In this document: positions 10,491 through 20,321 of the stretch, in pieces
Layout: each line of letters opens with the position of its first letter
How positions within the stretch are numbered: position 1 is the first letter of the stretch
Program-made: the position numbers and the translations under genes
Notes under the pieces: generated by a model
Database searches by the model: none
Told to the model about the DNA's origin: nothing
Seen by the model: the letters and a program-made list of their open reading frames with translations, nothing else
Assembly: GCA_048938895.1 (NCBI GenBank)
Contig: JBHLLU010000064.1
Location: 1-20,321, forward strand
DNA from: Promethearchaeota archaeon
GTDB lineage: Archaea; Asgardarchaeota; Lokiarchaeia; Sigyniarchaeales; SOKP01
Length of the DNA stretch: 20,321 bases
Direction of reading: 5' to 3'

Positions 10491-11696
10491 TTATTTCCTA
10501 TTATTTACAAAGTGCTTTATTACAATTATATAACTTTTAACAGGTAAAATTTTTGGATTTTTTTTATAACTAGCTGGAATTGGAGCATTGCACCTAGAAC
10601 ACAAGTTTGAACTTCTCAACCAATCCCTAAATTCATCTGCATGAGCAGGATATCTACAATTTGGGCATAAAATTATTCCCCTTCCTCTATCTTCGGGAAG
10701 TTTAGGCAATTTAAAACAAAAAATGCATTTAAAATCCTCTTTTGATAAGCGTGCTGCATTAGGTTTATATATATTAAAATTAGTTATTTTTCTCATACTC
10801 TTTTGGCTACGTACTTGACTTCCTGTTGATCCTGTCCTTGTAGTTTTAGTTGATGTTTTAACACTTGTAGTTGCAGATCTTCTCTGTGAGGTCGGTGTTG
10901 ATCTTGATGAATGACTTACAGTTCTTGATCTATTAGTCACAGTTCTAATTGAAGGTGTTGGAGTTGCTCTTATAGTTGTCCGAGTGCTTTCTCTATATCT
11001 TCTTGGCGTTGTATTAGATCTAGGTGTTGTTAATTGGTTTAATCTATTTGTACGTTGAGTGATATAATCTCTAGTTAGCTGGGGCAATCGGGATCTTGTT
11101 CCAAATAATCCCGGAATAATTATTATTAAGATTGTAACTATAAGCAATATCAAAAGATTAAGATCTACAAAGAGATGAGCAGGTAGGAAATAAGGATCAT
11201 AAAAGTCGACAAGAGAATAAAAACTTAACCAATATATTACAATGAAAAGCACAATTGAAATACTCAAGATATAACCAAATTTACGCGCATCGATAGATTT
11301 AGTACCAAAATAAATCACATTATATTTCTTAAAGCAACGATAAAGAGAGATTGAACCATATAAAATATAGGGAGACCCGAATAGAATACTCCACCAACTT
11401 AAATATAAATCGGTACTTTCTAAAAGATTTTCACCTAACAAACCTGTAAAATTCCCCCAAATTGAATAAAAGATTCCAATAAAAAGAGGAGCTATAGTAA
11501 AAAATGCGGTATTATGAGGTGAGTTATATTCGCGGTGCTGTTTAATGTTTTTTAAAACTTTAAAAGAAAATATTAACCAGATCCCAATCAATAACCAGCT
11601 AATAAAGACATTAACGGAATTTAGGATTGCCCCATGAATTATTCCTATAATTGTAAACACAAGGAGTAGTAGGACTATTGATTTAGTTTTTACCAC
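10491..11696 (-). CDS. Multi-pass membrane protein with C-terminal RING-variant zinc finger (putative E3 ligase)
   Basis: About 6 hydrophobic segments in residues ~7-200, then a ~100 aa Thr/Ser/Arg-rich low-complexity linker. It ends in C-x2-C-x16-C-x2-C-x4-H-x2-E-x3-W-x6-C-x2-C (nt 10590-10727). Last gene of the Ubl-E1-E2-JAMM run. Confidence 0.72.
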   Translation of the reverse strand: MVKTKSIVLLLLVFTIIGIIHGAILNSVNVFISWLLIGIWLIFSFKVLKNIKQHREYNSPHNTAFFTIAPLFIGIFYSIWGNFTGLLGENLLESTDLYLSWWSILFGSPYILYGSISLYRCFKKYNVIYFGTKSIDARKFGYILSISIVLFIVIYWLSFYSLVDFYDPYFLPAHLFVDLNLLILLIVTILIIIIPGLFGTRSRLPQLTRDYITQRTNRLNQLTTPRSNTTPRRYRESTRTTIRATPTPSIRTVTNRSRTVSHSSRSTPTSQRRSATTSVKTSTKTTRTGSTGSQVRSQKSMRKITNFNIYKPNAARLSKEDFKCIFCFKLPKLPEDRGRGIILCPNCRYPAHADEFRDWLRSSNLCSRCNAPIPASYKKNPKILPVKSYIIVIKHFVNNRK

Positions 11697-11725: not shown

Positions 11726-12559
11726 TTAATCTTCATCATATTCTAGATATACCGGCTTTCCCTGAATAATGGGATTCATAAAATTTAGTATTTCTGGAAG
11801 CATGCGAATGTCTAGTGACCCTTTAATACCATAAACTAAGGGATACCAACTCTTAGTGGTTAAATCAGCACGATAAATTTCAAAGCCTGCTGAAGTTCCG
11901 TTAATAAGGTATGGATCTATAACAAGTGCAACAGCTTTATTCCAAAGTTTTTGGTATCTTGCTTGAGTGCCAATATCTTCGTTAGACATAAAACATCCAT
12001 AAGAAGGATGACTATGTGCCCAACCACAAATAAATAACTTTTGTTTTTTAATATCTTGAAAGGCTCTAGCATAATTTCTATAATCTTTTATTTCAGCATA
12101 CACTGCTGTTCCATGACCCATAGGATAGTAATCCTCAATATGTAAAATGCCATATCTATCAATTACTTTTCCTGCAAGTAGTCCTATTACTTCTACCCAA
12201 TTTCGTTTGGGAATTCTAGAATTCGCATACTTAAGGGCATGACTTGCTACTTTTAGAATTGCTTTTACTGAAATGTATACTTCCTTTTCTATTTTTTCAT
12301 CATTATTACTTATTTCCTCTACGTTTATTGTGTCTGATCTAGCCTGAATGGTATTTGAATGCTTAATTGTTTGCTTTTCGGGAGTTTTTTTAGAAATCAT
12401 CGAGCTAATTTCATTAACTAATTCTTTTTCTTCAAATTTTAATTCTTCATAAATTTCTTCTAATAGTTCCTTTTTAATTATGTCTTTAATTTTCAATTTT
12501 ATCGTCTCTTTAATAGAGTCTATATGTTTATTTTCTTCTCCCATTCTGTTTTTCACCAC
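11726..12559 (-). CDS. JAMM/MPN+ metallo-isopeptidase (Rpn11/AMSH-like) with N-terminal helical extension; ATG at 12544 is a likely alternative start
   Basis: ISVKAILKVASHA, catalytic EVIGLL, GWAHSHPSYGCFMSNED (HxH-x7-S-x2-D), ALVIDP. Confidence 0.92.
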   Translation of the reverse strand: MVKNRMGEENKHIDSIKETIKLKIKDIIKKELLEEIYEELKFEEKELVNEISSMISKKTPEKQTIKHSNTIQARSDTINVEEISNNDEKIEKEVYISVKAILKVASHALKYANSRIPKRNWVEVIGLLAGKVIDRYGILHIEDYYPMGHGTAVYAEIKDYRNYARAFQDIKKQKLFICGWAHSHPSYGCFMSNEDIGTQARYQKLWNKAVALVIDPYLINGTSAGFEIYRADLTTKSWYPLVYGIKGSLDIRMLPEILNFMNPIIQGKPVYLEYDED

Positions 12560-13080
12560 TTTTTAGTAGCATACTTTTTAACAAGAGTTTTTACTTTTTT
12601 TTCAAAAAGTTTCTGATTTTTCATCATTTCTATTGCTGCCTTTTTATTGAAAACATCAGTTGGATTTACATACTTACCTCGTGTGTTTAACATGGCGATT
12701 ATCGCCTGAACGACAGTAACAGCTGATTTTGATGGACTCCAGCCACCCTTTTTTCCAACTAGTGATGGATCTACTAATGCCAAACATATATTTCTCTGTC
12801 CTTTATATTCACTCGGCTTTGCCCAAAAATTCGGATGCCAAATCGGTGTGTGTAATCTAACAAATGGTGGCTGCTTAGGATACTGAGTAGGAAATCTCAT
12901 TTCTAACTTAAAGAGACCACCTGCATAAGCCGTACCCTTGGGACCTTTAATAGTCATTGCTAAATGATCTATACTCTTTCTTTGAGGATTAAATGGTTTT
13001 AACTGAATTATAGTTCCTTGTTTATATAATTTTTTTAATCCAGCAAAATCTTGGGAGATCCGACTACTTCTTATACTCAT
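12553..13080 (-). CDS. Ubiquitin-conjugating enzyme E2
   Basis: IKGPKGTAYAGGLFKLEMRFPTQYPKQPP, TPIWHPN, catalytic Cys in NICL, WSP, NPTDVFNKKAA. Confidence 0.93.
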   Translation of the reverse strand: MSIRSSRISQDFAGLKKLYKQGTIIQLKPFNPQRKSIDHLAMTIKGPKGTAYAGGLFKLEMRFPTQYPKQPPFVRLHTPIWHPNFWAKPSEYKGQRNICLALVDPSLVGKKGGWSPSKSAVTVVQAIIAMLNTRGKYVNPTDVFNKKAAIEMMKNQKLFEKKVKTLVKKYATKKW

Positions 13081-13180: not shown

Positions 13181-14416
13181 TTATTTGAATTTAAGAGTTA
13201 CAAAAATTTCTCCTTCCTTAAATCCTGCAATTGTTAAAAATTCATAATCTCTTAAACCGTTTTGAATTGGATTCTGTTCTAAATCTATCATTTTGACATC
13301 GTTAAAATCCAGTAATGTTATAACAGGTTCTAGATCAGGATCTAGTTTAAAACCATGATTTTCTAAGGTTTTAATTACATTACTACATGGAGAACTTTTA
13401 TTCAACTTCACTACGAATCTTCGAACATCTTTACCACATTGAGAACATTCTGGGTTCCTTTTCTTTTCAATATGATAAAACATCATGGTTATTCCATTAA
13501 AAATAACATATGTTTTGATAGGTTGACCTAAACCCTTATGACCTTTATTCCAATGAAGAATTTTTACAACTTCATGCGATTGTAATGCAGAAATAATTGC
13601 ATTGATGGTTATAATTCCTGGATCATGCCTATCAATAATTTTAACAATATCATCTTCAGTATACTCAGGGAGGAAATTGTGTTTGTTTACCAGTTCATTA
13701 GCAATTTTTTGAATATACTTAATATCATCAATGTTCTTTGGATTGGGGTCCCTGTCAAAGTTTTCCTTAAAGGCCATATCTCCCTTGAAAACACAGTGAA
13801 TTCTTTTTCTCGGTACGCCAACGACTGTACATGCTGCCATCTCATCACTTGCTCCCACTGGGAGAGGATTACATTCATAACATGCATTTTTGTAAGGAAA
13901 AACGGTATAAACATGACCATGGTAACCTGATACTCCTCCATCTACTAAGGGTTTTCTAAATCTAATACACTGAGCATTTAAATTTAAACGAGCGTTCATG
14001 GAGTCGAGACCCCCCACGACAACATCAGCTGCCTTATATAATTCTGGATCCAATCTTTCTAAGGAACTATAATACCCTTTGATAACTATATTCGGATTAA
14101 TTTCACTTAATTTTTTTGCAGCAACATTTGCTTTAGGTTCTCCTAACTTAGCACCTGCAAATAAAATTTGACGATTTAAATTTGAATGTTCTATAATATC
14201 TAGATCTACCAAATCTATATGACCCACACCTAACATTGCTATGTTCTTCGCAATTTCGCATCCTAATCCACCAACTCCCACTATTAAAACTCGAGAATTT
14301 TTTACTAGTTTCTGTGACCATCCCTCAAGTCTAAATTGCCTATCATATAAATTTCGTTCTTCTGATGTTAGATCTTTACTAAAAAAATCTGAACTCTTTT
14401 TCATTATTTTCACCAA
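13181..14416 (-). CDS. Ubiquitin-like activating enzyme E1 (ThiF/MoeB fold with Uba2/Uba3-like catalytic Cys segment); ATG at 14404 likely start
   Basis: YDRQ, VGVGGLGCE, DLDIIEHSNLNRQILF, Zn pairs CYEC and CSQC, catalytic segment ACTVVGVPRKRIHC, and a ~80 aa C-terminal extension in the position of a ubiquitin-fold domain. Confidence 0.92.
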   Translation of the reverse strand: MVKIMKKSSDFFSKDLTSEERNLYDRQFRLEGWSQKLVKNSRVLIVGVGGLGCEIAKNIAMLGVGHIDLVDLDIIEHSNLNRQILFAGAKLGEPKANVAAKKLSEINPNIVIKGYYSSLERLDPELYKAADVVVGGLDSMNARLNLNAQCIRFRKPLVDGGVSGYHGHVYTVFPYKNACYECNPLPVGASDEMAACTVVGVPRKRIHCVFKGDMAFKENFDRDPNPKNIDDIKYIQKIANELVNKHNFLPEYTEDDIVKIIDRHDPGIITINAIISALQSHEVVKILHWNKGHKGLGQPIKTYVIFNGITMMFYHIEKKRNPECSQCGKDVRRFVVKLNKSSPCSNVIKTLENHGFKLDPDLEPVITLLDFNDVKMIDLEQNPIQNGLRDYEFLTIAGFKEGEIFVTLKFK

Positions 14417-14427
14417 TTATGAATATT

Positions 14428-14463
14428 AAAAAATAAAAAAAATTAGGGGCTTAAAGCCCTAAT
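14428..14463 (-). terminator. Hairpin plus T-tract between the Ubl and E1 genes
   Basis: The minus strand reads ATTAGGGCTTTAAGCCCCTAAT (inverted repeat with one bulge, 14442-14463), followed at once by TTTTTTTATTTTTT. Confidence 0.55.
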
Positions 14464-14493
14464 ATGATATTTTATGAAGAGAATTATATAAGT

Positions 14494-14826
14494 CTAACCC
14501 GCAGTACTTGCAGGAATCAAAAGAATATCATCACCATCATTGACATTATAGTCTCTCAAAGAACTATTTTCATCCATTGTAACTCCGCCAGAAGATAAAT
14601 GAAAATCATTTGGATCAAGCCCATAAAGATTACCTAAAGTTCGCTTAATATCTCTTACTTGATTACTGTCATTAACTGTTAATTTTTCTTTTTTTTCTCC
14701 AGGACCAATAGTTGACATGAAATATAAAGTAAGTTTTTTTCCTCCAGAAGGAGTCTTAGAGGCAGGAGTTTTAGATCTTAAAGGTTCCTCCTCACCTAAA
14801 TTTTCATCAAATTCATCAAAACTCAT
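14494..14826 (-). CDS. Ubiquitin-like modifier 1 (beta-grasp fold, acidic N-terminal tail, C-terminal ..LIPASTAG)
   Basis: Ubl pattern LTV...V.DIK...FHLSSGGVTMDENSSLRDYNVNDGDDILLIP; ends in Gly immediately before TAG; directly upstream of E1. Confidence 0.9.
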   Translation of the reverse strand: MSFDEFDENLGEEEPLRSKTPASKTPSGGKKLTLYFMSTIGPGEKKEKLTVNDSNQVRDIKRTLGNLYGLDPNDFHLSSGGVTMDENSSLRDYNVNDGDDILLIPASTAG

Positions 14827-14930
14827 TCAAAACACTTCCTTTTTTTTGTTATTTCTTGATTTTTATTTAGTTATTAATTTTAAACTTAATAAGAACATAT
14901 TAAAAAGATAATATAAAATCAATTGGAATG

Positions 14931-14960
14931 ATTTTGAAGTTTTTTTAAAAACATCAAAAT
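14931..14960. promoter_or_regulatory. 30-bp dyad in the divergent Ubl1/wHTH promoter region (candidate operator)
   Basis: ATTTTGA-A-GTTTTT-TT-AAAAAC-A-TCAAAAT: 13 of 14 arm positions pair. The AT-rich context lowers its significance. Confidence 0.45.
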
Positions 14961-15076
14961 TGAGATGGAGGAAATTACGATTTAGAAGAAATTATACTAT
15001 AAATTGTATGAATGCCTATTAATATATATACAAATATACAAGACCAAAAATTTCAATGCTATAAAAACATAAGCTT

Positions 15077-15748
15077 ATGAATTCTTTGGATAATGCAGAA
15101 TCTATTGTTCTTGAATTAGTAGAAGAGTATTTAGTGAAAAAAACCTTTTTTTCTGTAAGAGAAATTATATCGTTTATTAGTAATAGAGTGAGGTATAATC
15201 CTAATATAAATGAGAATAGAATTGAATTAATCTTAAAGGATTTAATTAAACAAAGAATTATTCTTCCTGGTACAAGATTAATGAAAAACAATATTATTGA
15301 ACATCCAAAAAGGAATGAGATCTTTAATTACATCAAGAAGAATCCCTCAAATATTAATGAAATAATGAAAACCCTGCATATCGGTAGTAATCAAGCTTTA
15401 TGGCATTTATCATGTTTAGAAAAATTCCAATTCGTAAGATCAAAACAAATTAACAATCATAGAGTTTTCTTTAAATTTGAATCAAATCCTAAATATGACG
15501 AGTTATATTATTATTTGAAAAAAGAAATTCTTCAAAAAATAATTCAGTTTATGGATCAAGAGAATAGAGCATTAAAAATTACAGAAATAGCAACTGGTTT
15601 AAAAAAAAATCATAATACAATCAAAAAATACTTGTCTATCTTAACGGATCTGAAATTAATAAATATTGAAAAGGATATTAAGAGAAAACTCTTCAAACTT
15701 AACAAAAAGAATTACATAAAGATAAAAAAATTAATTAATGGTGGTTAA
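15077..15748 (+). CDS. Multi-domain winged helix-turn-helix transcription regulator (ArsR-like tandem wHTH)
   Basis: KRNEIFNYIKKNPSNINEIMKTLHIGSNQALWHLSCLEKFQFV and LKITEIATGLKKNHNTIKKYLSILTDLKLI are two wHTH units; there may be a third at the N-terminus. Confidence 0.8.
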   Translation: MNSLDNAESIVLELVEEYLVKKTFFSVREIISFISNRVRYNPNINENRIELILKDLIKQRIILPGTRLMKNNIIEHPKRNEIFNYIKKNPSNINEIMKTLHIGSNQALWHLSCLEKFQFVRSKQINNHRVFFKFESNPKYDELYYYLKKEILQKIIQFMDQENRALKITEIATGLKKNHNTIKKYLSILTDLKLINIEKDIKRKLFKLNKKNYIKIKKLINGG

Positions 15749-15833: not shown

Positions 15834-16625
15834 ATGAAAAAAAAAAATAGAATTTTTAGTATTTTTGCTCTTTTTGCTGTCTGTATTTTTATTTATGTTC
15901 TTTTTTTCTTATTTCGTATCAAAAATTATTCCTTATTTCTCATTCTATCGATTGGTAGTGTTGCTGTTCTATCTACTAGTACTGTGTATACAATTATTCA
16001 ATCTAAAGGTAGTTGGGAAGATAAAATAAAAAGAAAAAAAATACCTGAACCTAAATCAATTAAAATGAAACCTGTTGATATCATTGAATACTATATTGAT
16101 GCTATACCTTTAATTAAAGAGTATGTTGAATCAGATGAAAGTTATAAGGATATGGAAATAATCGATAAGTATATTTTTTCAGTTTTTAGTAAGGAAGAAT
16201 TAATTAAAATAAATCTCCTTGATTTATCTCCAATTGATAAAATTAACTTCATCCAAGAAATGCTTTATTTTGATTCAAATGAAAGAAAGACCTTGTTTGA
16301 AAATATGTTGAGAAATAGAGATAAAGTTGATGAAAAAGTTACTTATACACCGATTCTAAGTACTTATGATACTGAAGACCAGATTCGTGTTTTTATAAGA
16401 TCATTAGTTGAACCCGGTGATAAAACAAAAATATTAATAATTAACACTGATGAATTTATTGGTATATTAAAAGAAAAAATAGGCATAATATTTGATTATA
16501 CTCCAGAAAGTTTTTTACTCTCTTCAGGAGGAATATTGTTAGATGATCAATCACAAATAAAAGACTTCAATATAGTAGATGATGATGAGATAGCTTTAAT
16601 TCCCTCAAGAAAAAATAGAGGATAA
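15834..16625 (+). CDS. Membrane-anchored protein (2 N-terminal TM segments) with C-terminal ubiquitin-like domain ending in Gly
   Basis: Hydrophobic residues ~8-27 and ~33-56. Residues 183-263 (nt 16380-16622) align by eye with the neighbouring Ubls (FLLSSGGILLDDQSQIKDFNIVDDDEIALIP vs FHLSSGGVTMDENSSLRDYNVNDGDDILLIP). It ends ..RKNRG-stop. Confidence 0.82.
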   Translation: MKKKNRIFSIFALFAVCIFIYVLFFLFRIKNYSLFLILSIGSVAVLSTSTVYTIIQSKGSWEDKIKRKKIPEPKSIKMKPVDIIEYYIDAIPLIKEYVESDESYKDMEIIDKYIFSVFSKEELIKINLLDLSPIDKINFIQEMLYFDSNERKTLFENMLRNRDKVDEKVTYTPILSTYDTEDQIRVFIRSLVEPGDKTKILIINTDEFIGILKEKIGIIFDYTPESFLLSSGGILLDDQSQIKDFNIVDDDEIALIPSRKNRG

Positions 16626-16663: not shown

Positions 16664-17071
16664 TTACCCCGCTGTACTTGCTGGAATTAACAAAATGTCG
16701 TCACCATCATTTATATTGTAATCTTTTAAAAATGAACCCTCATCCATAGTAACTCCACCAGAAGATAAATGAAAATCAGCTGGATCTAATCCAAATAAGT
16801 TTGCTACCGTTTCTTTAATATCTCCAACATTATTGCCCGTATTTACATTTAATTTCTGCTTTTTCTCACCTGGACCAATAGTAGACATGAAATATACGGA
16901 AATCTTTTTCCCTTCAGTAGTAACTCTTAGTGCAGGAGTTTTGGATTCAACTACTTCTTCAGGAGTCTTAGTAGAAGGTTCTTCTAAATCTTCTTCCAAA
17001 TCTTCGTCTAACTCTTCATCTAACTCTTCATCCAAATCCAAATCCTCATCAAAATCATTGTCAAATCCCAT
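16664..17071 (-). CDS. Ubiquitin-like modifier 2 (paralogue of Ubl1, longer acidic tail); start reassigned to ATG 17071
   Basis: The core is near-identical to Ubl1 (YFMSTIGPGEKK, DFHLSSGGVTMDE, NDGDDILLIPASTAG). MGFD matches Ubl1 MSFD, and AGGAGG at 17085-17090 lies upstream. 135 aa. Confidence 0.9.
   Translation of the reverse strand: MGFDNDFDEDLDLDEELDEELDEDLEEDLEEPSTKTPEEVVESKTPALRVTTEGKKISVYFMSTIGPGEKKQKLNVNTGNNVGDIKETVANLFGLDPADFHLSSGGVTMDEGSFLKDYNINDGDDILLIPASTAG
16979..17035 (-). repeat. 12-bp tandem repeat (about 5 copies) encoding L-[DE]-E-[DE] in the Ubl2 tail
   Basis: TTGGATGAAGAG / TTAGATGAAGAG / TTAGACGAAGAT / TTGGAAGAAGAT / TTAGAAGAA on the minus strand. Confidence 0.75.
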
Positions 17072-17307
17072 TAAAATTATATAACCTCCTTTGTTATGAA
17101 TACATATACATAAAAGAAATTTAAATATATAAATAGAATCGAGATATAAAAGAATAAATCTCAAAATAAAATTAATGACCTCATTTAACTGCATTATTAA
17201 AAATGCAAAATATTTAAAATTCTTTTCAGGACTTATTTTTAGTAAAATGCAAACACTTTAGAGTCGGGGTTAATATGAAATTATTAGCATAATTAGATAT
17301 TAAATGA

Positions 17308-18429
17308 ATGTATATGAATGAAGAACCTATTCCAAAACATAAGATTAGAGAAAAAACACCAGAAGAAGAGATGGATCTTCCACTCGATAAAAGACTATTA
17401 AAAAAAATTAAAAAAGAGAGAATAGCTTTAGATAAAGAAAAGAGTGAGTGGGAAAAAGTAGTTAACCAAATTGAAAATTATAATGATAATATCAAAAGTC
17501 TTGAAATAAAAAGGAAGAACCTAGAAACTGAGGTCAGAAACCTCACCGAAAAAAGGGATTTATTACGAAATGACTTAAAACAAGCGAGAAATGACATTGA
17601 AAAACAAAAAGACGATTTAGCTTTGAAAGAAAACCAGTTAAGAGAGAGATATAGGAGAAAAAATGAAGAACTAAGCGAAAAGAAAGCTCAACTTGACAAA
17701 TTTCAAGAGAAATTAGATAATTTACGGGAGGAAATAAGTAGAGACAAAAATGATTTAGAAAATGAAAAGCAAAATTCAGAGAACCGCTTAAAAGAGATCA
17801 AAACAAAACTTCCTGGGATGGAAAGAAGAGAGAGTGCTTTAGAAAGAACTATTAATGATTTAGAAGATAAGTTAATGGATTTAAGAGATGAAGCAAAAAA
17901 TCTAACTAAAGAACGCGATAGCCTAAAAAGGGAAATAATTGATGAAAGAAATAGGATAGCTGACGAAAAAAGAAGGTTAAAAGAAGAACGAGAAAAAACT
18001 CGATATAGGAAAAAAGATTTAGATTTAAAAGCACGTGAAATTGAAAAAAAAAAAGAAGATTTAAAAAAATATAGAGATAAAATAGATAAGGACTCAAATG
18101 ATCTAGAAAAAAGAACCCGACAACAAGACACAAGATTTAAAGAATTAGAAAGGAAAATTCCTCGAGCTGAAGACAGATACAACTCCTTAATGCATAAAAT
18201 CCCAAATTTAGAAGATAAACTCAAAAAGTTAAATGAGGATTATAAAAAAATCGCAAAGGAAAAGATTTCACTAGAGAATGAAAAAAATACCATCAGGAGA
18301 GAACGAGAAAAACTTGAGAAAGATAAACAACGATTCTTAAGAGAAAAACGAGATTTTGAAAAAGAAATAAGGAAAATTAAAACTATCCCTAAACATAAAA
18401 TCAGATCAAAAACTCCTTCAAACTACTAA
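17308..18429 (+). CDS. Long coiled-coil protein with internal ~116-120 aa repeat and matching terminal motifs
   Basis: K/E/R/L-rich heptad-like sequence with no ATPase head. IPKHKIREKTP at the N-terminus and IPKHKIRSKTP at the C-terminus. Confidence 0.8.
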   Translation: MYMNEEPIPKHKIREKTPEEEMDLPLDKRLLKKIKKERIALDKEKSEWEKVVNQIENYNDNIKSLEIKRKNLETEVRNLTEKRDLLRNDLKQARNDIEKQKDDLALKENQLRERYRRKNEELSEKKAQLDKFQEKLDNLREEISRDKNDLENEKQNSENRLKEIKTKLPGMERRESALERTINDLEDKLMDLRDEAKNLTKERDSLKREIIDERNRIADEKRRLKEEREKTRYRKKDLDLKAREIEKKKEDLKKYRDKIDKDSNDLEKRTRQQDTRFKELERKIPRAEDRYNSLMHKIPNLEDKLKKLNEDYKKIAKEKISLENEKNTIRREREKLEKDKQRFLREKRDFEKEIRKIKTIPKHKIRSKTPSNY

Positions 18430-18445
18430 AAATAACATTTTTTTT

Positions 18446-19495
18446 GTGAGATTCGTGAAAATAATTGAAGGTATAGAAGGAGACTATATAGAGACCAATG
18501 AATCTAATTTATTTTTTGATGTAAAAGGGTTATTTCATCCAAATGATAGAAAGATCTGTTTCCTAAGATTTTATCCTCATCCAGAAGGGGATAGAATAAA
18601 ACAAGGAATCAAGTATAAAAAAGTATACAATTTAGATGAACGCTATTCCCTAATCAAAACTATGTATCCTCAATACCTTTTTAACTCTAAAGAACTTGGT
18701 ATAGAAGTACAAGCTGTTAAAAATCGAGATATTAAAAAAATTTATACTCCGAGAGAATATTTTCAGAATTTGAAAGAAATCGACAATCTTTCTACTCTTG
18801 AGAGTTATTCCAAAGATTTATGTGAATTATTTATTGAAAAAGGAGGAATCTCTCCGGATTTAATAGGAATCACAGGATCCACAATGGTTGGTTTAAATGA
18901 AGAAGACTCAGATATTGATATAATTATCTATGGCACAGAAAATAGTTATAATTTTCAAGAAAAACTCTTTAATATATTGAAAGAGAGTAGTTTGCTCAGA
19001 AAGTATAATTTGGAAGAATATAATACTCACTATGATTGGAGGGTTGGGGGTTCTGATATTTCTTTTGAAAGTTTTATGAGGAGTGAGCGAAGGAAGCTTC
19101 ATCAAGGAAAATTTTCCGTTTATGATTATTTTATTCGTTATATAAAAAGCCCTAAGGACTGGAAAGGTAATTATTATGATTATGAGTACTCGAATATGGG
19201 AAGAATTAAAGTGAAAGCACTAATAACTGAATCAAAAGATTCCATATTTACTCCTTGTACTTACAAAATTGGTAATGTTAAGCCCCTTGAGAAAAAATTA
19301 ACTGATAATAAAATTGATATAAAAGATATAACAGAAATAAATTCTTTTCGAGCACGTTTCTGTGAACAAGCTAAAGAAGGAGAATATGTGTTAGTAGAAG
19401 GAAAATTAGAACGAGTTAATTATAAAGATACAATTGAATTTTATCGAATTTTATTAACTGACCAAACTAAGGATAAAATGCTTGTTATAAATTAA
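18446..19495 (+). CDS. Archaeal nucleotidyltransferase-domain protein (pol-beta superfamily, COG1665-like)
   Basis: EGDYIET..FFDVKG..HP, FLRFYP, IGITGS..VG..SDIDIIIYG (GS + DxD), and C-terminal OB-like SFRARFCEQAKEGEYVLVEGKLE. Confidence 0.75.
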   Translation: MRFVKIIEGIEGDYIETNESNLFFDVKGLFHPNDRKICFLRFYPHPEGDRIKQGIKYKKVYNLDERYSLIKTMYPQYLFNSKELGIEVQAVKNRDIKKIYTPREYFQNLKEIDNLSTLESYSKDLCELFIEKGGISPDLIGITGSTMVGLNEEDSDIDIIIYGTENSYNFQEKLFNILKESSLLRKYNLEEYNTHYDWRVGGSDISFESFMRSERRKLHQGKFSVYDYFIRYIKSPKDWKGNYYDYEYSNMGRIKVKALITESKDSIFTPCTYKIGNVKPLEKKLTDNKIDIKDITEINSFRARFCEQAKEGEYVLVEGKLERVNYKDTIEFYRILLTDQTKDKMLVIN

Positions 19496-19554
19496 AGTTA
19501 AATAATTAACGTATTATTAAAATCTTTTTATTAGAAAAAAATTTTCAATATCTG

Positions 19555-20321
19555 ATGGATGTATTCAATGCTGATTTACATATTCACTCTCCCCACTCGA
19601 TTGCAGTATCCAAATCACTAAATCTCGACACGATGTTAGAAACTTGTAAAAAAAAAGGATTAAATATTCTTGGTACGGGTGATATTTTACAACCAGAATG
19701 GCTTAAATATATGCAAAGCAATTTAAAAAAAGAATCAGATGGCTCCTTTTCTTATAAAGATGTATTTTTTATACTTCAAACTGAAATTGAAGACATGGAA
19801 AGTATTCATCATGTAATCTTACTTCCGAATTTCACAGTAGTAGAGGAAGTGCAAAAAAAATTAGAACCTCATTCAAAAAATCTTTTGGATGAATGGGGTG
19901 GAAGACCTCGAGTAAATTTATCACCTCCCGCATTGGTTGATCTTATTACAGATTCTGGGGGTATAATTGGTCCTGCTCATGCATTTACACCATTCAAAGC
20001 AATCTTTCGACAAGATAAATTTGAGACTCTGGAGGATTGTTATCAAGATGCAATAGATAAAGTACATTTTTTAGAACTGGGATTATCTGCAAATACAGAT
20101 TTGGCAGATAAATTAGATACTCTCAAAAATATTACATTCCTCAGTAATAGTGATGCCCATTCACAAGATCCTCGTTCTTTAGGACGAGAATTTAATAGGT
20201 TAGAAATTGATAATCCCTCTTTTGAAGAATTAGAATTGGCTTTGAGAAGAAAGAGTAATCGTAAAATAACTTTAAACGTCGGATTACACCCGAAACTTGG
20301 AAAATATTATAATATGTTTTG
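19555..20321 (+). CDS. PHP-domain endonuclease Q-like protein (TIGR00375-type), truncated by the window end
   Basis: Not in the ORF track. ATG at 19555 reads MDVFNADLHIHSPHS..KKKGLNILGTGD..QTEIED..IHH..GRP..IGPAHAFTPF..LELGLSA..FLSNSDAHS..LGREFN..LGKYY; open to the end of the window. Confidence 0.85.
   Translation, partial: MDVFNADLHIHSPHSIAVSKSLNLDTMLETCKKKGLNILGTGDILQPEWLKYMQSNLKKESDGSFSYKDVFFILQTEIEDMESIHHVILLPNFTVVEEVQKKLEPHSKNLLDEWGGRPRVNLSPPALVDLITDSGGIIGPAHAFTPFKAIFRQDKFETLEDCYQDAIDKVHFLELGLSANTDLADKLDTLKNITFLSNSDAHSQDPRSLGREFNRLEIDNPSFEELELALRRKSNRKITLNVGLHPKLGKYYNMF

Follow-up and report, generated by a model that had tools for sequence, protein, structure and literature searches.

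Which family does a small archaeal ubiquitin-like protein (Ubl) with a single C-terminal glycine belong to, and is it attached to other proteins? The question is raised by a 20.3 kb stretch of contig JBHLLU010000064.1 from a Promethearchaeota archaeon, called the window here, which has a G+C content of about 30%. A gene on its minus strand encodes a protein of 110 amino acids, Ubl1, which an initial annotation had read as a mosaic, related to UFM1 in its C-terminal tail and beta1-beta2 region and SUMO-like in its N-terminal tail, and as a relic of the divergence of eukaryotic Ubl families. Sequence comparison leads us to conclude that Ubl1 is very probably a conjugatable ubiquitin-family modifier of a Lokiarchaeial ubiquitin-like cascade, and not a relative of UFM1. 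The gene and its parts are as follows.

14494..14826, minus strand: Ubl1, putative ubiquitin-family modifier of 110 amino acids, stop codon at 14494-14496 (open reading frame (ORF), PF00240 match, beta-grasp model over residues 31-105)
14737..14826, minus strand: N-terminal tail of Ubl1, residues 1-30, with an acidic aromatic start motif (MSFDEFDE..) and two psi-[KR]-S-K-T-P-type motifs (K19, K24)
14497..14523, minus strand: C-terminal tail of Ubl1, LLIPASTAG, residues 102-110, with G110 as the presumed site of conjugation

Ubl1 is a member of the ubiquitin family

Ubl1 matches the Pfam ubiquitin family (PF00240) with an E-value of 1.4e-6 and 28.4 bits, above the cut-off of 25.4, which places it in that family by profile. 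UBL_USP40 and Rad60-SLD also match, both under their Pfam cut-offs; the latter, the SUMO profile (PF11976), reaches 19.8 bits against a cut-off of 23.8, so Ubl1 is not a SUMO by this measure. Across 44 diverse members of the Ubl1 family PF00240 matches all 44 at E<=10 and Rad60-SLD matches 29 (best 1.1e-5). When a family profile is compared with PDB sequences, ubiquitin chains rank first among the best matches listed; a single ubiquitin scores 2.7e-5, a Bacteroides ubiquitin 2.2e-7 and the Caldiarchaeum Ubl 1.3e-5. A search of the PDB with the single core sequence (phmmer) pairs core residues 17-74 with ubiquitin residues 13-70 without a gap. The last nine residues of Ubl1 pair one to one with the last nine of ubiquitin, because the core alignment is gapless up to ubiquitin residue 70: I104 falls on residue 70, P105 on 71, A106 on 72, A109 on Gly75 and G110 on Gly76. 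The offset of four residues between the two proteins lies in the beta1-beta2 loop, which is enlarged in Ubl1 and carries a nearly invariant STIGPGEK motif.

An AlphaFold2 model of Ubl1, built from an alignment of 44 sequences, has a mean predicted local distance difference test score (pLDDT) of 74.9, with values of 47-54 for the 10-residue blocks of residues 1-30 and 82-87 for the core. The model contains strands at residues 31-38 and 45-52, a helix at 57-68, strands at 75-79 and 82-84, a short helix at 90-93 and a strand at 100-105. This beta-grasp fold superposes on ubiquitin. The best Foldseek match of the model in the PDB is the ubiquitin of Caldiarchaeum (6fno_D, 6.7e-8), and the best rows of Foldseek and VIA-align after it are ubiquitin variants, ISG15, NEDD8, Hub1 and SUMO (best 50 of at least 500 matches for Foldseek, best 50 for VIA-align).

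Across 47 gapless relatives the ratio of non-synonymous to synonymous polymorphism (pN/pS) rises from 0.027 in the last nine codons to 0.11 in the core and 0.26 in the N-terminal tail, and the IPxSTAG end is the most constrained part of the gene. Judged by its codons, the Ubl1 gene is real and constrained.

The single-glycine end and probable precursor processing

The window encodes a second protein of this kind.

16664..17071, minus strand: Ubl2, paralogue of Ubl1, 135 amino acids, with a strongly acidic tail of 54 amino acids, two KTP motifs and the LLIPASTAG end

Ubl2 is 71% identical to Ubl1 and scores 24.5 bits against PF00240, slightly below the cut-off. Its ORF runs from 16664 to 17194, minus strand; the real start is the Met at 17071, since relatives begin at the same MGF/MGD position and the frame upstream differs between loci. 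As the initial annotation had observed, both proteins end in LLIPASTAG directly followed by the stop codon, with nothing encoded beyond the Gly in these two genes, and both have acidic N-terminal extensions, which are disordered and measure 30 amino acids in Ubl1 and 54 in Ubl2. Given the pN/pS values, the common LLIPASTAG reflects paralogy under selection and not chance. The end is Ala-Gly; a single Gly is kept, and Ubl1 thus lacks the exposed Gly-Gly of the ubiquitin family.

A word-indexed search found 864 homologues of Ubl1 at E<=1e-3, of which the best 120, 83-95% identical, were listed as close homologues. IPASTAG is found in 119 of these and IPASSAG in one. The stop codon directly follows the Gly in 113; the other seven have 2-4 more residues. 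A set of 80 related loci was taken from species-representative genomes; it consists of close relatives, and some of its gene shortfalls are contig ends. These loci contain 126 STAG-type ORFs, of which 111 stop directly after the Gly and 15 have an extension. At least two such ORFs, short-tailed and long-tailed, are present in 45 of the 80 loci.

An exhaustive search with the 80-residue core gave 456 proteins at E<=0.001. Among the 150 of these that were listed, 33 carry the core motifs of the family and are treated here as distant representatives; many multi-stretch matches (20-32% identity), many of them in the register of ubiquitin, look like polyubiquitins. A [ILVM]P-x4-G motif lies within eight residues of the end in 31 of the 33, and the two representatives without it look truncated or chimeric. 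The terminal Gly, on whose conservation the initial annotation had made its reading depend, is therefore kept both in close homologues (all 120 listed) and in these 31 distant ones. The Gly is the last residue in ten of the 31, and in 21 it is followed by 1-6 more; overall, extensions among relatives span 1-7 amino acids. The earlier description of the modifier as encoded already mature is right for the close clade and does not extend to the wider family.

Two relatives consist of Ubl units joined head to tail, three in P0121 and two in P0122. Every unit runs from an acidic F-E-D-[LF] motif and a KSKTP motif through the fold to the ..AG end, and no residue separates the Gly of one unit from the following one. 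By their sequences these proteins would be polyubiquitin-like precursors, and they are strong indirect evidence of cleavage after ..AG. The Ubl is also found at the C-terminus of fusion proteins, with CDC48_N-VWA (two representatives) and with a HerA-type ATPase (one), where the ..AG end is kept at or near the C-terminus. Other fusions have an N-terminal CPxC zinc-ribbon-like motif or a weak Roadblock/LC7 match before the Ubl. The fused or tandem relatives are P0121, P0122, P0144, P0155, P0166 and P0137.

Ubl1 and UFM1

Mature UFM1 ends IIP-RDRV-G. As the initial annotation describes for UFM1, Ubl1 ends in a lone Gly preceded by a small hydrophobic residue, with a Pro five before that residue, and its beta1-beta2 loop is enlarged. 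The spacing of the tail that had been taken as UFM1-like is however the spacing of ubiquitin itself, the core being gapless to the last residue of ubiquitin. The Ufm1 family (PF03671) gives no match for Ubl1 at E<=10, and it is not among the 25 Pfam families listed for the 44 family members, which were ordered by member count down to one. Nothing scores over the PF03671 cut-off in the 4.65-Mb genome or in 400 genomes of the phylum; the only match in the genome (E 0.091) is a 469-residue ORF that reads like an aspartate kinase. UFM1 is absent among the best 50 Foldseek and best 50 VIA-align rows, and among the best 60 rows of the PDB sequence and profile searches (378 and 298 matches). In the ESM Atlas the nearest neighbours are ubiquitin/Rad60 clusters at 0.92, with 173-185 of 256 features common to both. 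A UFM1 cluster appears at 0.84 (135 features) when those families are excluded, level with bacterial YukD-like and TmoB clusters.

The enzymes encoded next to Ubl1, described below, are also not of the UBA5/UFC1 type. The activating enzyme (E1) was noted from the start to be Uba2/Uba3-like rather than UBA5-like, and this is borne out (131-137 bits against 59 for UBA5); the conjugating enzyme (E2) is an ordinary UQ_con protein with an HPN motif. The E1 result argues against a UFM1-type pathway.

Structure-based Ufm1 homologues have been reported in nine Asgard clades (Köstlbacher et al., PMC12962969). Some have several or partial match regions, which resemble the fused and tandem forms described above. 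The supplement of that paper contains one Loki representative, in which query residues 1-84 are aligned to insect UFM1. This span fits another protein of the same genome better than it fits the Ubl1 core (residues 31-110). The protein in question is a tail-less Ubl of 84 amino acids on contig C123 (L002 1486-1740, minus strand), which ends in ..AGG plus one residue. It has 196 homologues and is conserved in Lokiarchaeia, with both Gly invariant in 23 aligned relatives; its model has a pLDDT of 90.7 and its best fold matches in the PDB are ubiquitin and SUMO. This protein may be the Loki 'Ufm1' homologue of PMC12962969.

Profile and Atlas rankings favour ubiquitin, as do the best fold matches listed, and the best profile match and these fold rows are of ubiquitin type with no UFM1 among them, the outcome that the initial annotation itself had named as speaking against its reading. 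We conclude from sequence and model that Ubl1 is very probably not a UFM1 relative, and we regard a UFM1-related mosaic that records eukaryotic Ubl divergence as a long shot. What is left of the mosaic class, once its UFM1 component is removed, is a distinct, conserved single-Gly class with a functional-looking tail.

The E1-E2-JAB cluster

Downstream of Ubl1, ORFs and Pfam matches define a row of minus-strand genes: Ubl1, E1, E2, JAB and a zinc-finger membrane protein.

14442..14463, minus strand: terminator-like hairpin followed by a T8 run, in the spacer between Ubl1 and E1 (pattern match)
13181..14416, minus strand: E1, 411 amino acids, canonical type, Cys196 in an ACT..P..HC segment (ThiF 7.3e-60)
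12553..13080, minus strand: E2, 175 amino acids, UBC fold, H82-P83-N84 and C99 (UQ_con 5.4e-26; motif read from the translation)
11726..12559, minus strand: JAB/MPN metalloprotease, 277 amino acids (PF01398 2.2e-13)
10491..11696, minus strand: polytopic membrane protein, 401 amino acids, with a C-terminal Cys/His zinc finger (sequence; weak Pfam zinc-finger matches)

A Ubl, a canonical-type E1, a UBC E2, a JAB and a RING-type protein are thus encoded together, as in the eukaryote-like operons of archaea, although the RING-like finger is weakly supported. The best PDB matches of the E1 are Uba1 (137 bits), SAE2 (133), UBA3 (131), MoeB (112) and UBA5 (59), and the match to UBA3 spans residues 35-331. 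The E1 segment AACTVVGVPRKRIHC aligns with the LCT...P motif of Uba1, and Cys196 pairs with the Cys of the Uba1 LCT. From adjacency (the E1 gene directly follows the Ubl in 50 of the 80 related loci), conservation and intact catalytic motifs we infer that Ubl1 is activated by this E1 and passed to the E2.

The ThiF/MoeB adenylation fold of the E1 could also suit a sulphur-carrier or dual-function Ubl of the ThiS/MoaD/Urm1/SAMP kind with MoeB-like activation, and two of the 44 family members match ThiS weakly (best E 0.013). This E1 has the canonical catalytic-Cys insertion, however, with the UBA3 match reaching residue 331; its scores are far under every MoeB/ThiF/UbaA NCBIfam cut-off, and no rhodanese domain was found with Pfam. 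A UBC E2 and a JAB stand alongside, and shorter ThiF genes elsewhere in the genome are available for such a task. With an E2 present, an E1 under the MoeB/ThiF cut-offs and an Ala-Gly end, Ubl1 differs from SAMP, Urm1, ThiS and MoaD and does not belong with them, and a carrier function is extremely unlikely.

The JAB protein has an intact E123 ... H182-x-H184 ... S192-x-x-D195 motif, and by this motif it is likely to be the processing and deconjugating enzyme. The zinc-finger membrane protein has about six hydrophobic segments, then an S/T/R/P-rich linker, then the C-terminal finger, whose Pfam matches are weak (zf_UBZ 0.011, zf-RING_16 0.081, Prok-RING_1 0.14); its layout suggests a candidate RING-like ligase (E3). 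The linker, at residues ~215-320 (window 10800-11100, minus strand), is of low complexity, with many TP and RS/RT pairs.

The spacer between Ubl1 and E1 is 78 nucleotides long. Positions 14200-15100 contain three terminator-like sites, where shuffled sequences would give 0.3; as a whole, the spacer does not fold unusually (z -0.64). The hairpin and T8 run could be a partial terminator, which would give more transcript of the modifier than of the enzymes.

Distribution and gene order

The other neighbours of Ubl1 lie on the plus strand.

15077..15748, plus strand: ArsR-type double winged-helix protein, possible regulator, divergent from Ubl1 (HTH_5 6.5e-7)
15834..16625, plus strand: membrane-anchored protein with a C-terminal Ubl domain (PF00240 24.9 bits; 31% identical to Ubl1)
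17308..18429, plus strand: coiled-coil protein, 373 amino acids, candidate substrate or co-client, with ..KIR[ES]KTP.., the motif of the Ubl tails, at each end
18446..19495, plus strand: nucleotidyltransferase-fold protein (Pfam)

Within 18446-20319 on the same strand, the nucleotidyltransferase-fold gene is followed by the start of an ORF that reads like a PHP-type phosphoesterase.

The E2 is present in 48 of the 80 related loci, JAB in 42, the zinc-finger membrane protein in 42, the helix-turn-helix (HTH) gene in 48, the membrane Ubl-domain protein in 47, the coiled-coil protein in 44 and the nucleotidyltransferase, right after the coiled-coil gene, in 43. At E<=1e-8 the core matches in 192 of the 400 phylum genomes and in 12 of 33 families; within the genus it is found in 52 of 53 genomes, usually in 3-5 copies. 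This single-query scan gave no match in, for example, families f18 (0 of 12) and f19 (0 of 19). Relatives with names all come from Promethearchaeota (Lokiarchaeia-type) metagenome genomes. Contigs with a Ubl1-type protein 79-96% identical carry submitter labels of Hermod-, Hod-, Odin- and Thorarchaeota as well as Promethearchaeota (loci L017-L096); the differing Asgard-phylum labels on them are probably unreliable. The NCBI label of these proteins is 'ubiquitin-like domain-containing protein', and nothing further. The sequences define a conserved family of Asgard Ubls in which three parts are fixed, namely a motif-bearing tail, a ubiquitin fold with the STIGPGEK loop and the IPxSTAG end.

The product of 15834-16625 ends in Gly in the window; a Gly end is found in one of 38 homologues, and the usual end is basic. 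Its sequence marks it as a UBL-domain protein and not a modifier, and its Gly here looks incidental. This protein recalls the membrane UBL-domain proteins of eukaryotes.

Might Ubl1 itself be a non-conjugated ubiquitin-like adaptor, whose tail motifs bind partners and whose terminal Gly is structural? A neighbouring membrane protein that carries a Ubl domain without a conserved Gly would fit such a role, as would the stand-alone Ubl copies in 30 of the 80 related loci and the Ubl at the end of large proteins in the CDC48_N-VWA and HerA fusions. The extreme constraint on the last nine residues does not fit it, nor do the short variable extensions and poly-Ubl junctions placed exactly after ..AG, the fixed position of the gene before E1-E2-JAB, or the fused forms that still keep ..AG at or near the C-terminus. 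We think an adaptor very unlikely.

The same four-gene logic is found in bacterial Ubl-E1-E2-JAB defence operons, and an anti-virus conjugation module of this kind, or one comparable to Cap2/Cap3 of the cyclic-oligonucleotide-based anti-phage signalling system (CBASS), would account for the nucleotidyltransferase-fold gene in the syntenic block and for the weak match of the E1 adenylation domain to CBASS E1-E2 models (<=59.5 bits). With 137 bits, however, Uba1 is a far closer match of the E1, and PADLOC gave no match for the Ubl, E2, JAB, zinc-finger protein or nucleotidyltransferase, with only generic matches for the E1 and the coiled-coil protein. The block is a stable feature of the core genome, with constant neighbours and a presence in nearly every genome of the genus, unlike a defence island. 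A defence role is highly unlikely, and conjugation by a resident ubiquitin-like cascade remains our preferred reading.

The N-terminal tail and the coiled-coil protein

The start motif of Ubl1 (its first ten residues) is nearly fixed among the 120 close homologues listed, and an acidic F-x-x-[LIF] motif is present in 11 of 14 short-tailed distant representatives. Ahead of the core, at least one K[TV]P is found in 125 of the 126 STAG-type ORFs and at least two in 83. Among ~3,900 crude ORFs the genome has eight occurrences of the longer motif [ILVMF][KR][STE]KTP, where composition would predict 1.4. The two short-tailed STAG Ubls (Ubl1 and a fourth STAG-type copy of the genome, on contig C53) account for two of the eight, and the coiled-coil protein, with one at each end, for another two. 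A further occurrence, KIRSKTP in a 497-residue ORF on C53, was put down to chance, as this ORF reads like anthranilate synthase.

The coiled-coil protein has a nearly identical 11-residue motif, ..PKHKIR[ES]KTP.., at both termini. In 44 orthologues the N-terminal motif is present in 42, and KTP lies within the last 12 residues in 41; of the three without a C-terminal KTP, one is cut by the end of the locus and two have KKP. I-K-[ST]-K-T-P-S is repeated in 2-4 tandem copies at the C-terminus of 20 of the 44. KTP occurs 0-1 times per set in 42-52 orthologues of the E1, E2, JAB, HTH protein, nucleotidyltransferase and zinc-finger protein. At the level of sequence, the Ubl tails and the co-clustered coiled-coil protein share a linear motif, and our best guess is that it serves as an acceptor or docking site of the Ubl1 cascade.

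A bolder version of this idea is possible, although we hold it to be rather unlikely. Here psi-[KR]-S-K-T-P would be an acceptor-lysine consensus that the cascade recognises directly, in the way the SUMO E2 recognises its own, the modifier would form chains on its own tail, the acidic aromatic head would be a reader-docking or unfoldase entry site, and both ends of the coiled-coil protein, with 1-4 motif copies at the C-terminal one, would be decorated. If true, this would be a consensus-directed, chain-forming Ubl system orthogonal to the Gly-Gly system in the same cell, and SUMO-versus-ubiquitin-type pathway diversification would already have taken place within Asgard archaea.

Consensus-directed conjugation and chain building would have a possible parallel in SUMO. 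The N-terminal tail of SUMO, too, is disordered and has conserved lysines within a short motif, and Rad60-SLD comes second among the Pfam families by number of family members matched; Ubl1 differs from SUMO in having no Gly-Gly and a tail motif that is basic, unlike the acidic SUMO consensus. The SUMO-like tail of the initial annotation is thus a fair functional analogy and does not amount to kinship, given the Rad60-SLD score below its cut-off.

A parallel Gly-Gly system

The genome encodes five ThiF-type genes and five UQ_con matches. A second full set lies on contig C15.

L107 (G000 contig C15:14000-30000), 6762-10257: ORFs of the C15 operon

This set comprises a JAB (175 amino acids), an E1 (294), an E2 (186), a Ubl and a membrane RING-like protein whose finger matches zf-C3HC4_3 at 0.0011. 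Its Ubl has 87 amino acids, ends in ..IGG plus three residues and is missed by PF00240. Because C15 holds a complete Gly-Gly set, the single-Gly family is one of at least two parallel cascades in the genome. Ubiquitin and NEDD8 are kept apart by a gate at residue 72, and by analogy the differing tail ends may keep the single-Gly and Gly-Gly systems apart.

Relation to known systems

The operon of Caldiarchaeum subterraneum encodes Ub, E1, E2, a small RING protein and an Rpn11-type JAB (PMC5654768, PMC6043591; PDB 6fno, 6fj7), and this JAB processes the Ub precursor (PMC6043591). The same gene set is found in one operon in the window, and Caldiarchaeum ubiquitin is the best structural match of the Ubl1 model. 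The differences are the Ala-Gly end, the motif-bearing tail of 30-54 amino acids and the enlarged beta1-beta2 loop; in addition, the E3 candidate of the window is a polytopic membrane protein, and the Lokiarchaeial genome encodes several paralogues of the Ubl as well as a second system of Gly-Gly type.

Ubl1 belongs to the same Pfam family as eukaryotic ubiquitin and NEDD8 and aligns without gaps from residue 13 to the C-terminus; the E1 beside it is likewise canonical and has a catalytic Cys, the E2 is of UBC type with HPN, and relatives have poly-Ubl genes. Ubl1 differs in its low identity (~20-26%), in the replacements Gly75->Ala, Leu71->Pro and Ile44->Ser, in its N-terminal tail and in its predicted removal by an operon-encoded JAB. 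Ubl1 appears to resemble UFM1 in its single C-terminal Gly, preceded by a small hydrophobic residue, and in its longer beta1-beta2 connection; the system differs from that of UFM1 in its canonical E1, its HPN E2 and a metalloprotease in place of a Cys protease.

Among Asgard archaea, a Helarchaeial E1/E2/RING cascade linked to the endosomal sorting complex required for transport (ESCRT) is active in vitro, and its ubiquitin precursor has Gly-Gly plus four residues (bioRxiv 10.1101/2023.07.25.550441). That system resembles the present one as an Asgard E1/E2/RING cascade whose modifier is made as a precursor, and differs in having a Gly-Gly ubiquitin beside ESCRT genes, where the window cluster has a single-Gly Ubl and no ESCRT gene. 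A further study treats Asgard ubiquitin in the ESCRT context (Hatano et al., PMC9192718). Nowhere in the literature searched is a single-Gly or tailed Asgard Ubl described, although subscription papers and some supplements may contain one. The system is a variant of known archaeal ubiquitin-like systems.

Proposed mechanism and significance

We propose that the adjacent canonical E1 adenylates G110 and takes Ubl1 on Cys196, and that Ubl1 then moves on to the UBC-type E2, at Cys99. Transfer to lysines at the membrane would be directed by the polytopic membrane protein with its RING-like finger, and the JAB/MPN protease would trim precursors and remove conjugates. The non-Gly penultimate residue and the Pro at the position of ubiquitin residue 71 may insulate the system from the Gly-Gly system of the genome. 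The disordered N-terminal tail would stay in the mature tag, with its acidic aromatic and psi-[KR]-S-K-T-P motifs as docking or acceptor sites, and the KTP motif at both ends would mark the coiled-coil protein as a likely client.

Several points weigh against this proposal. To our knowledge, no canonical E1 is documented to use an Ala-Gly end. The confidence of the Ubl1 model is middling. The position of ubiquitin Ile44 is Ser in Ubl1 in the register of the profile search, so the usual receptor surface of ubiquitin is not kept. The E3 assignment of the membrane protein rests on a cysteine pattern and sub-threshold Pfam matches, and the role of the KTP motif is conjectural. The JAB of the window also has one KTP, which is best ascribed to chance because only one of 43 orthologues has it. 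Given the stand-alone copies without enzymes, not every copy need be conjugated.

On balance a distinct modifier class is supported as a variant of the ubiquitin family, with an Ala-Gly end, an enlarged loop, a motif-bearing tail and an enzyme set of its own whose activities are predicted from sequence. Because the last Arg of Ubl1 is R91, trypsin would leave a remnant of 19 residues on a modified lysine instead of Gly-Gly, and proteomics that looks for the standard di-Gly remnant would not detect Ubl1 conjugates.

Asgard ubiquitin systems inform the origin of eukaryotic protein tagging, and those studied so far have Gly-Gly modifiers. The single-Gly family would add to a Gly-Gly system a second modifier that is served by a canonical E1, an E2, a protease and a candidate membrane ligase of its own. 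This pattern would be one of parallel, mutually insulated Ubl pathways as in eukaryotes, here in an archaeon.

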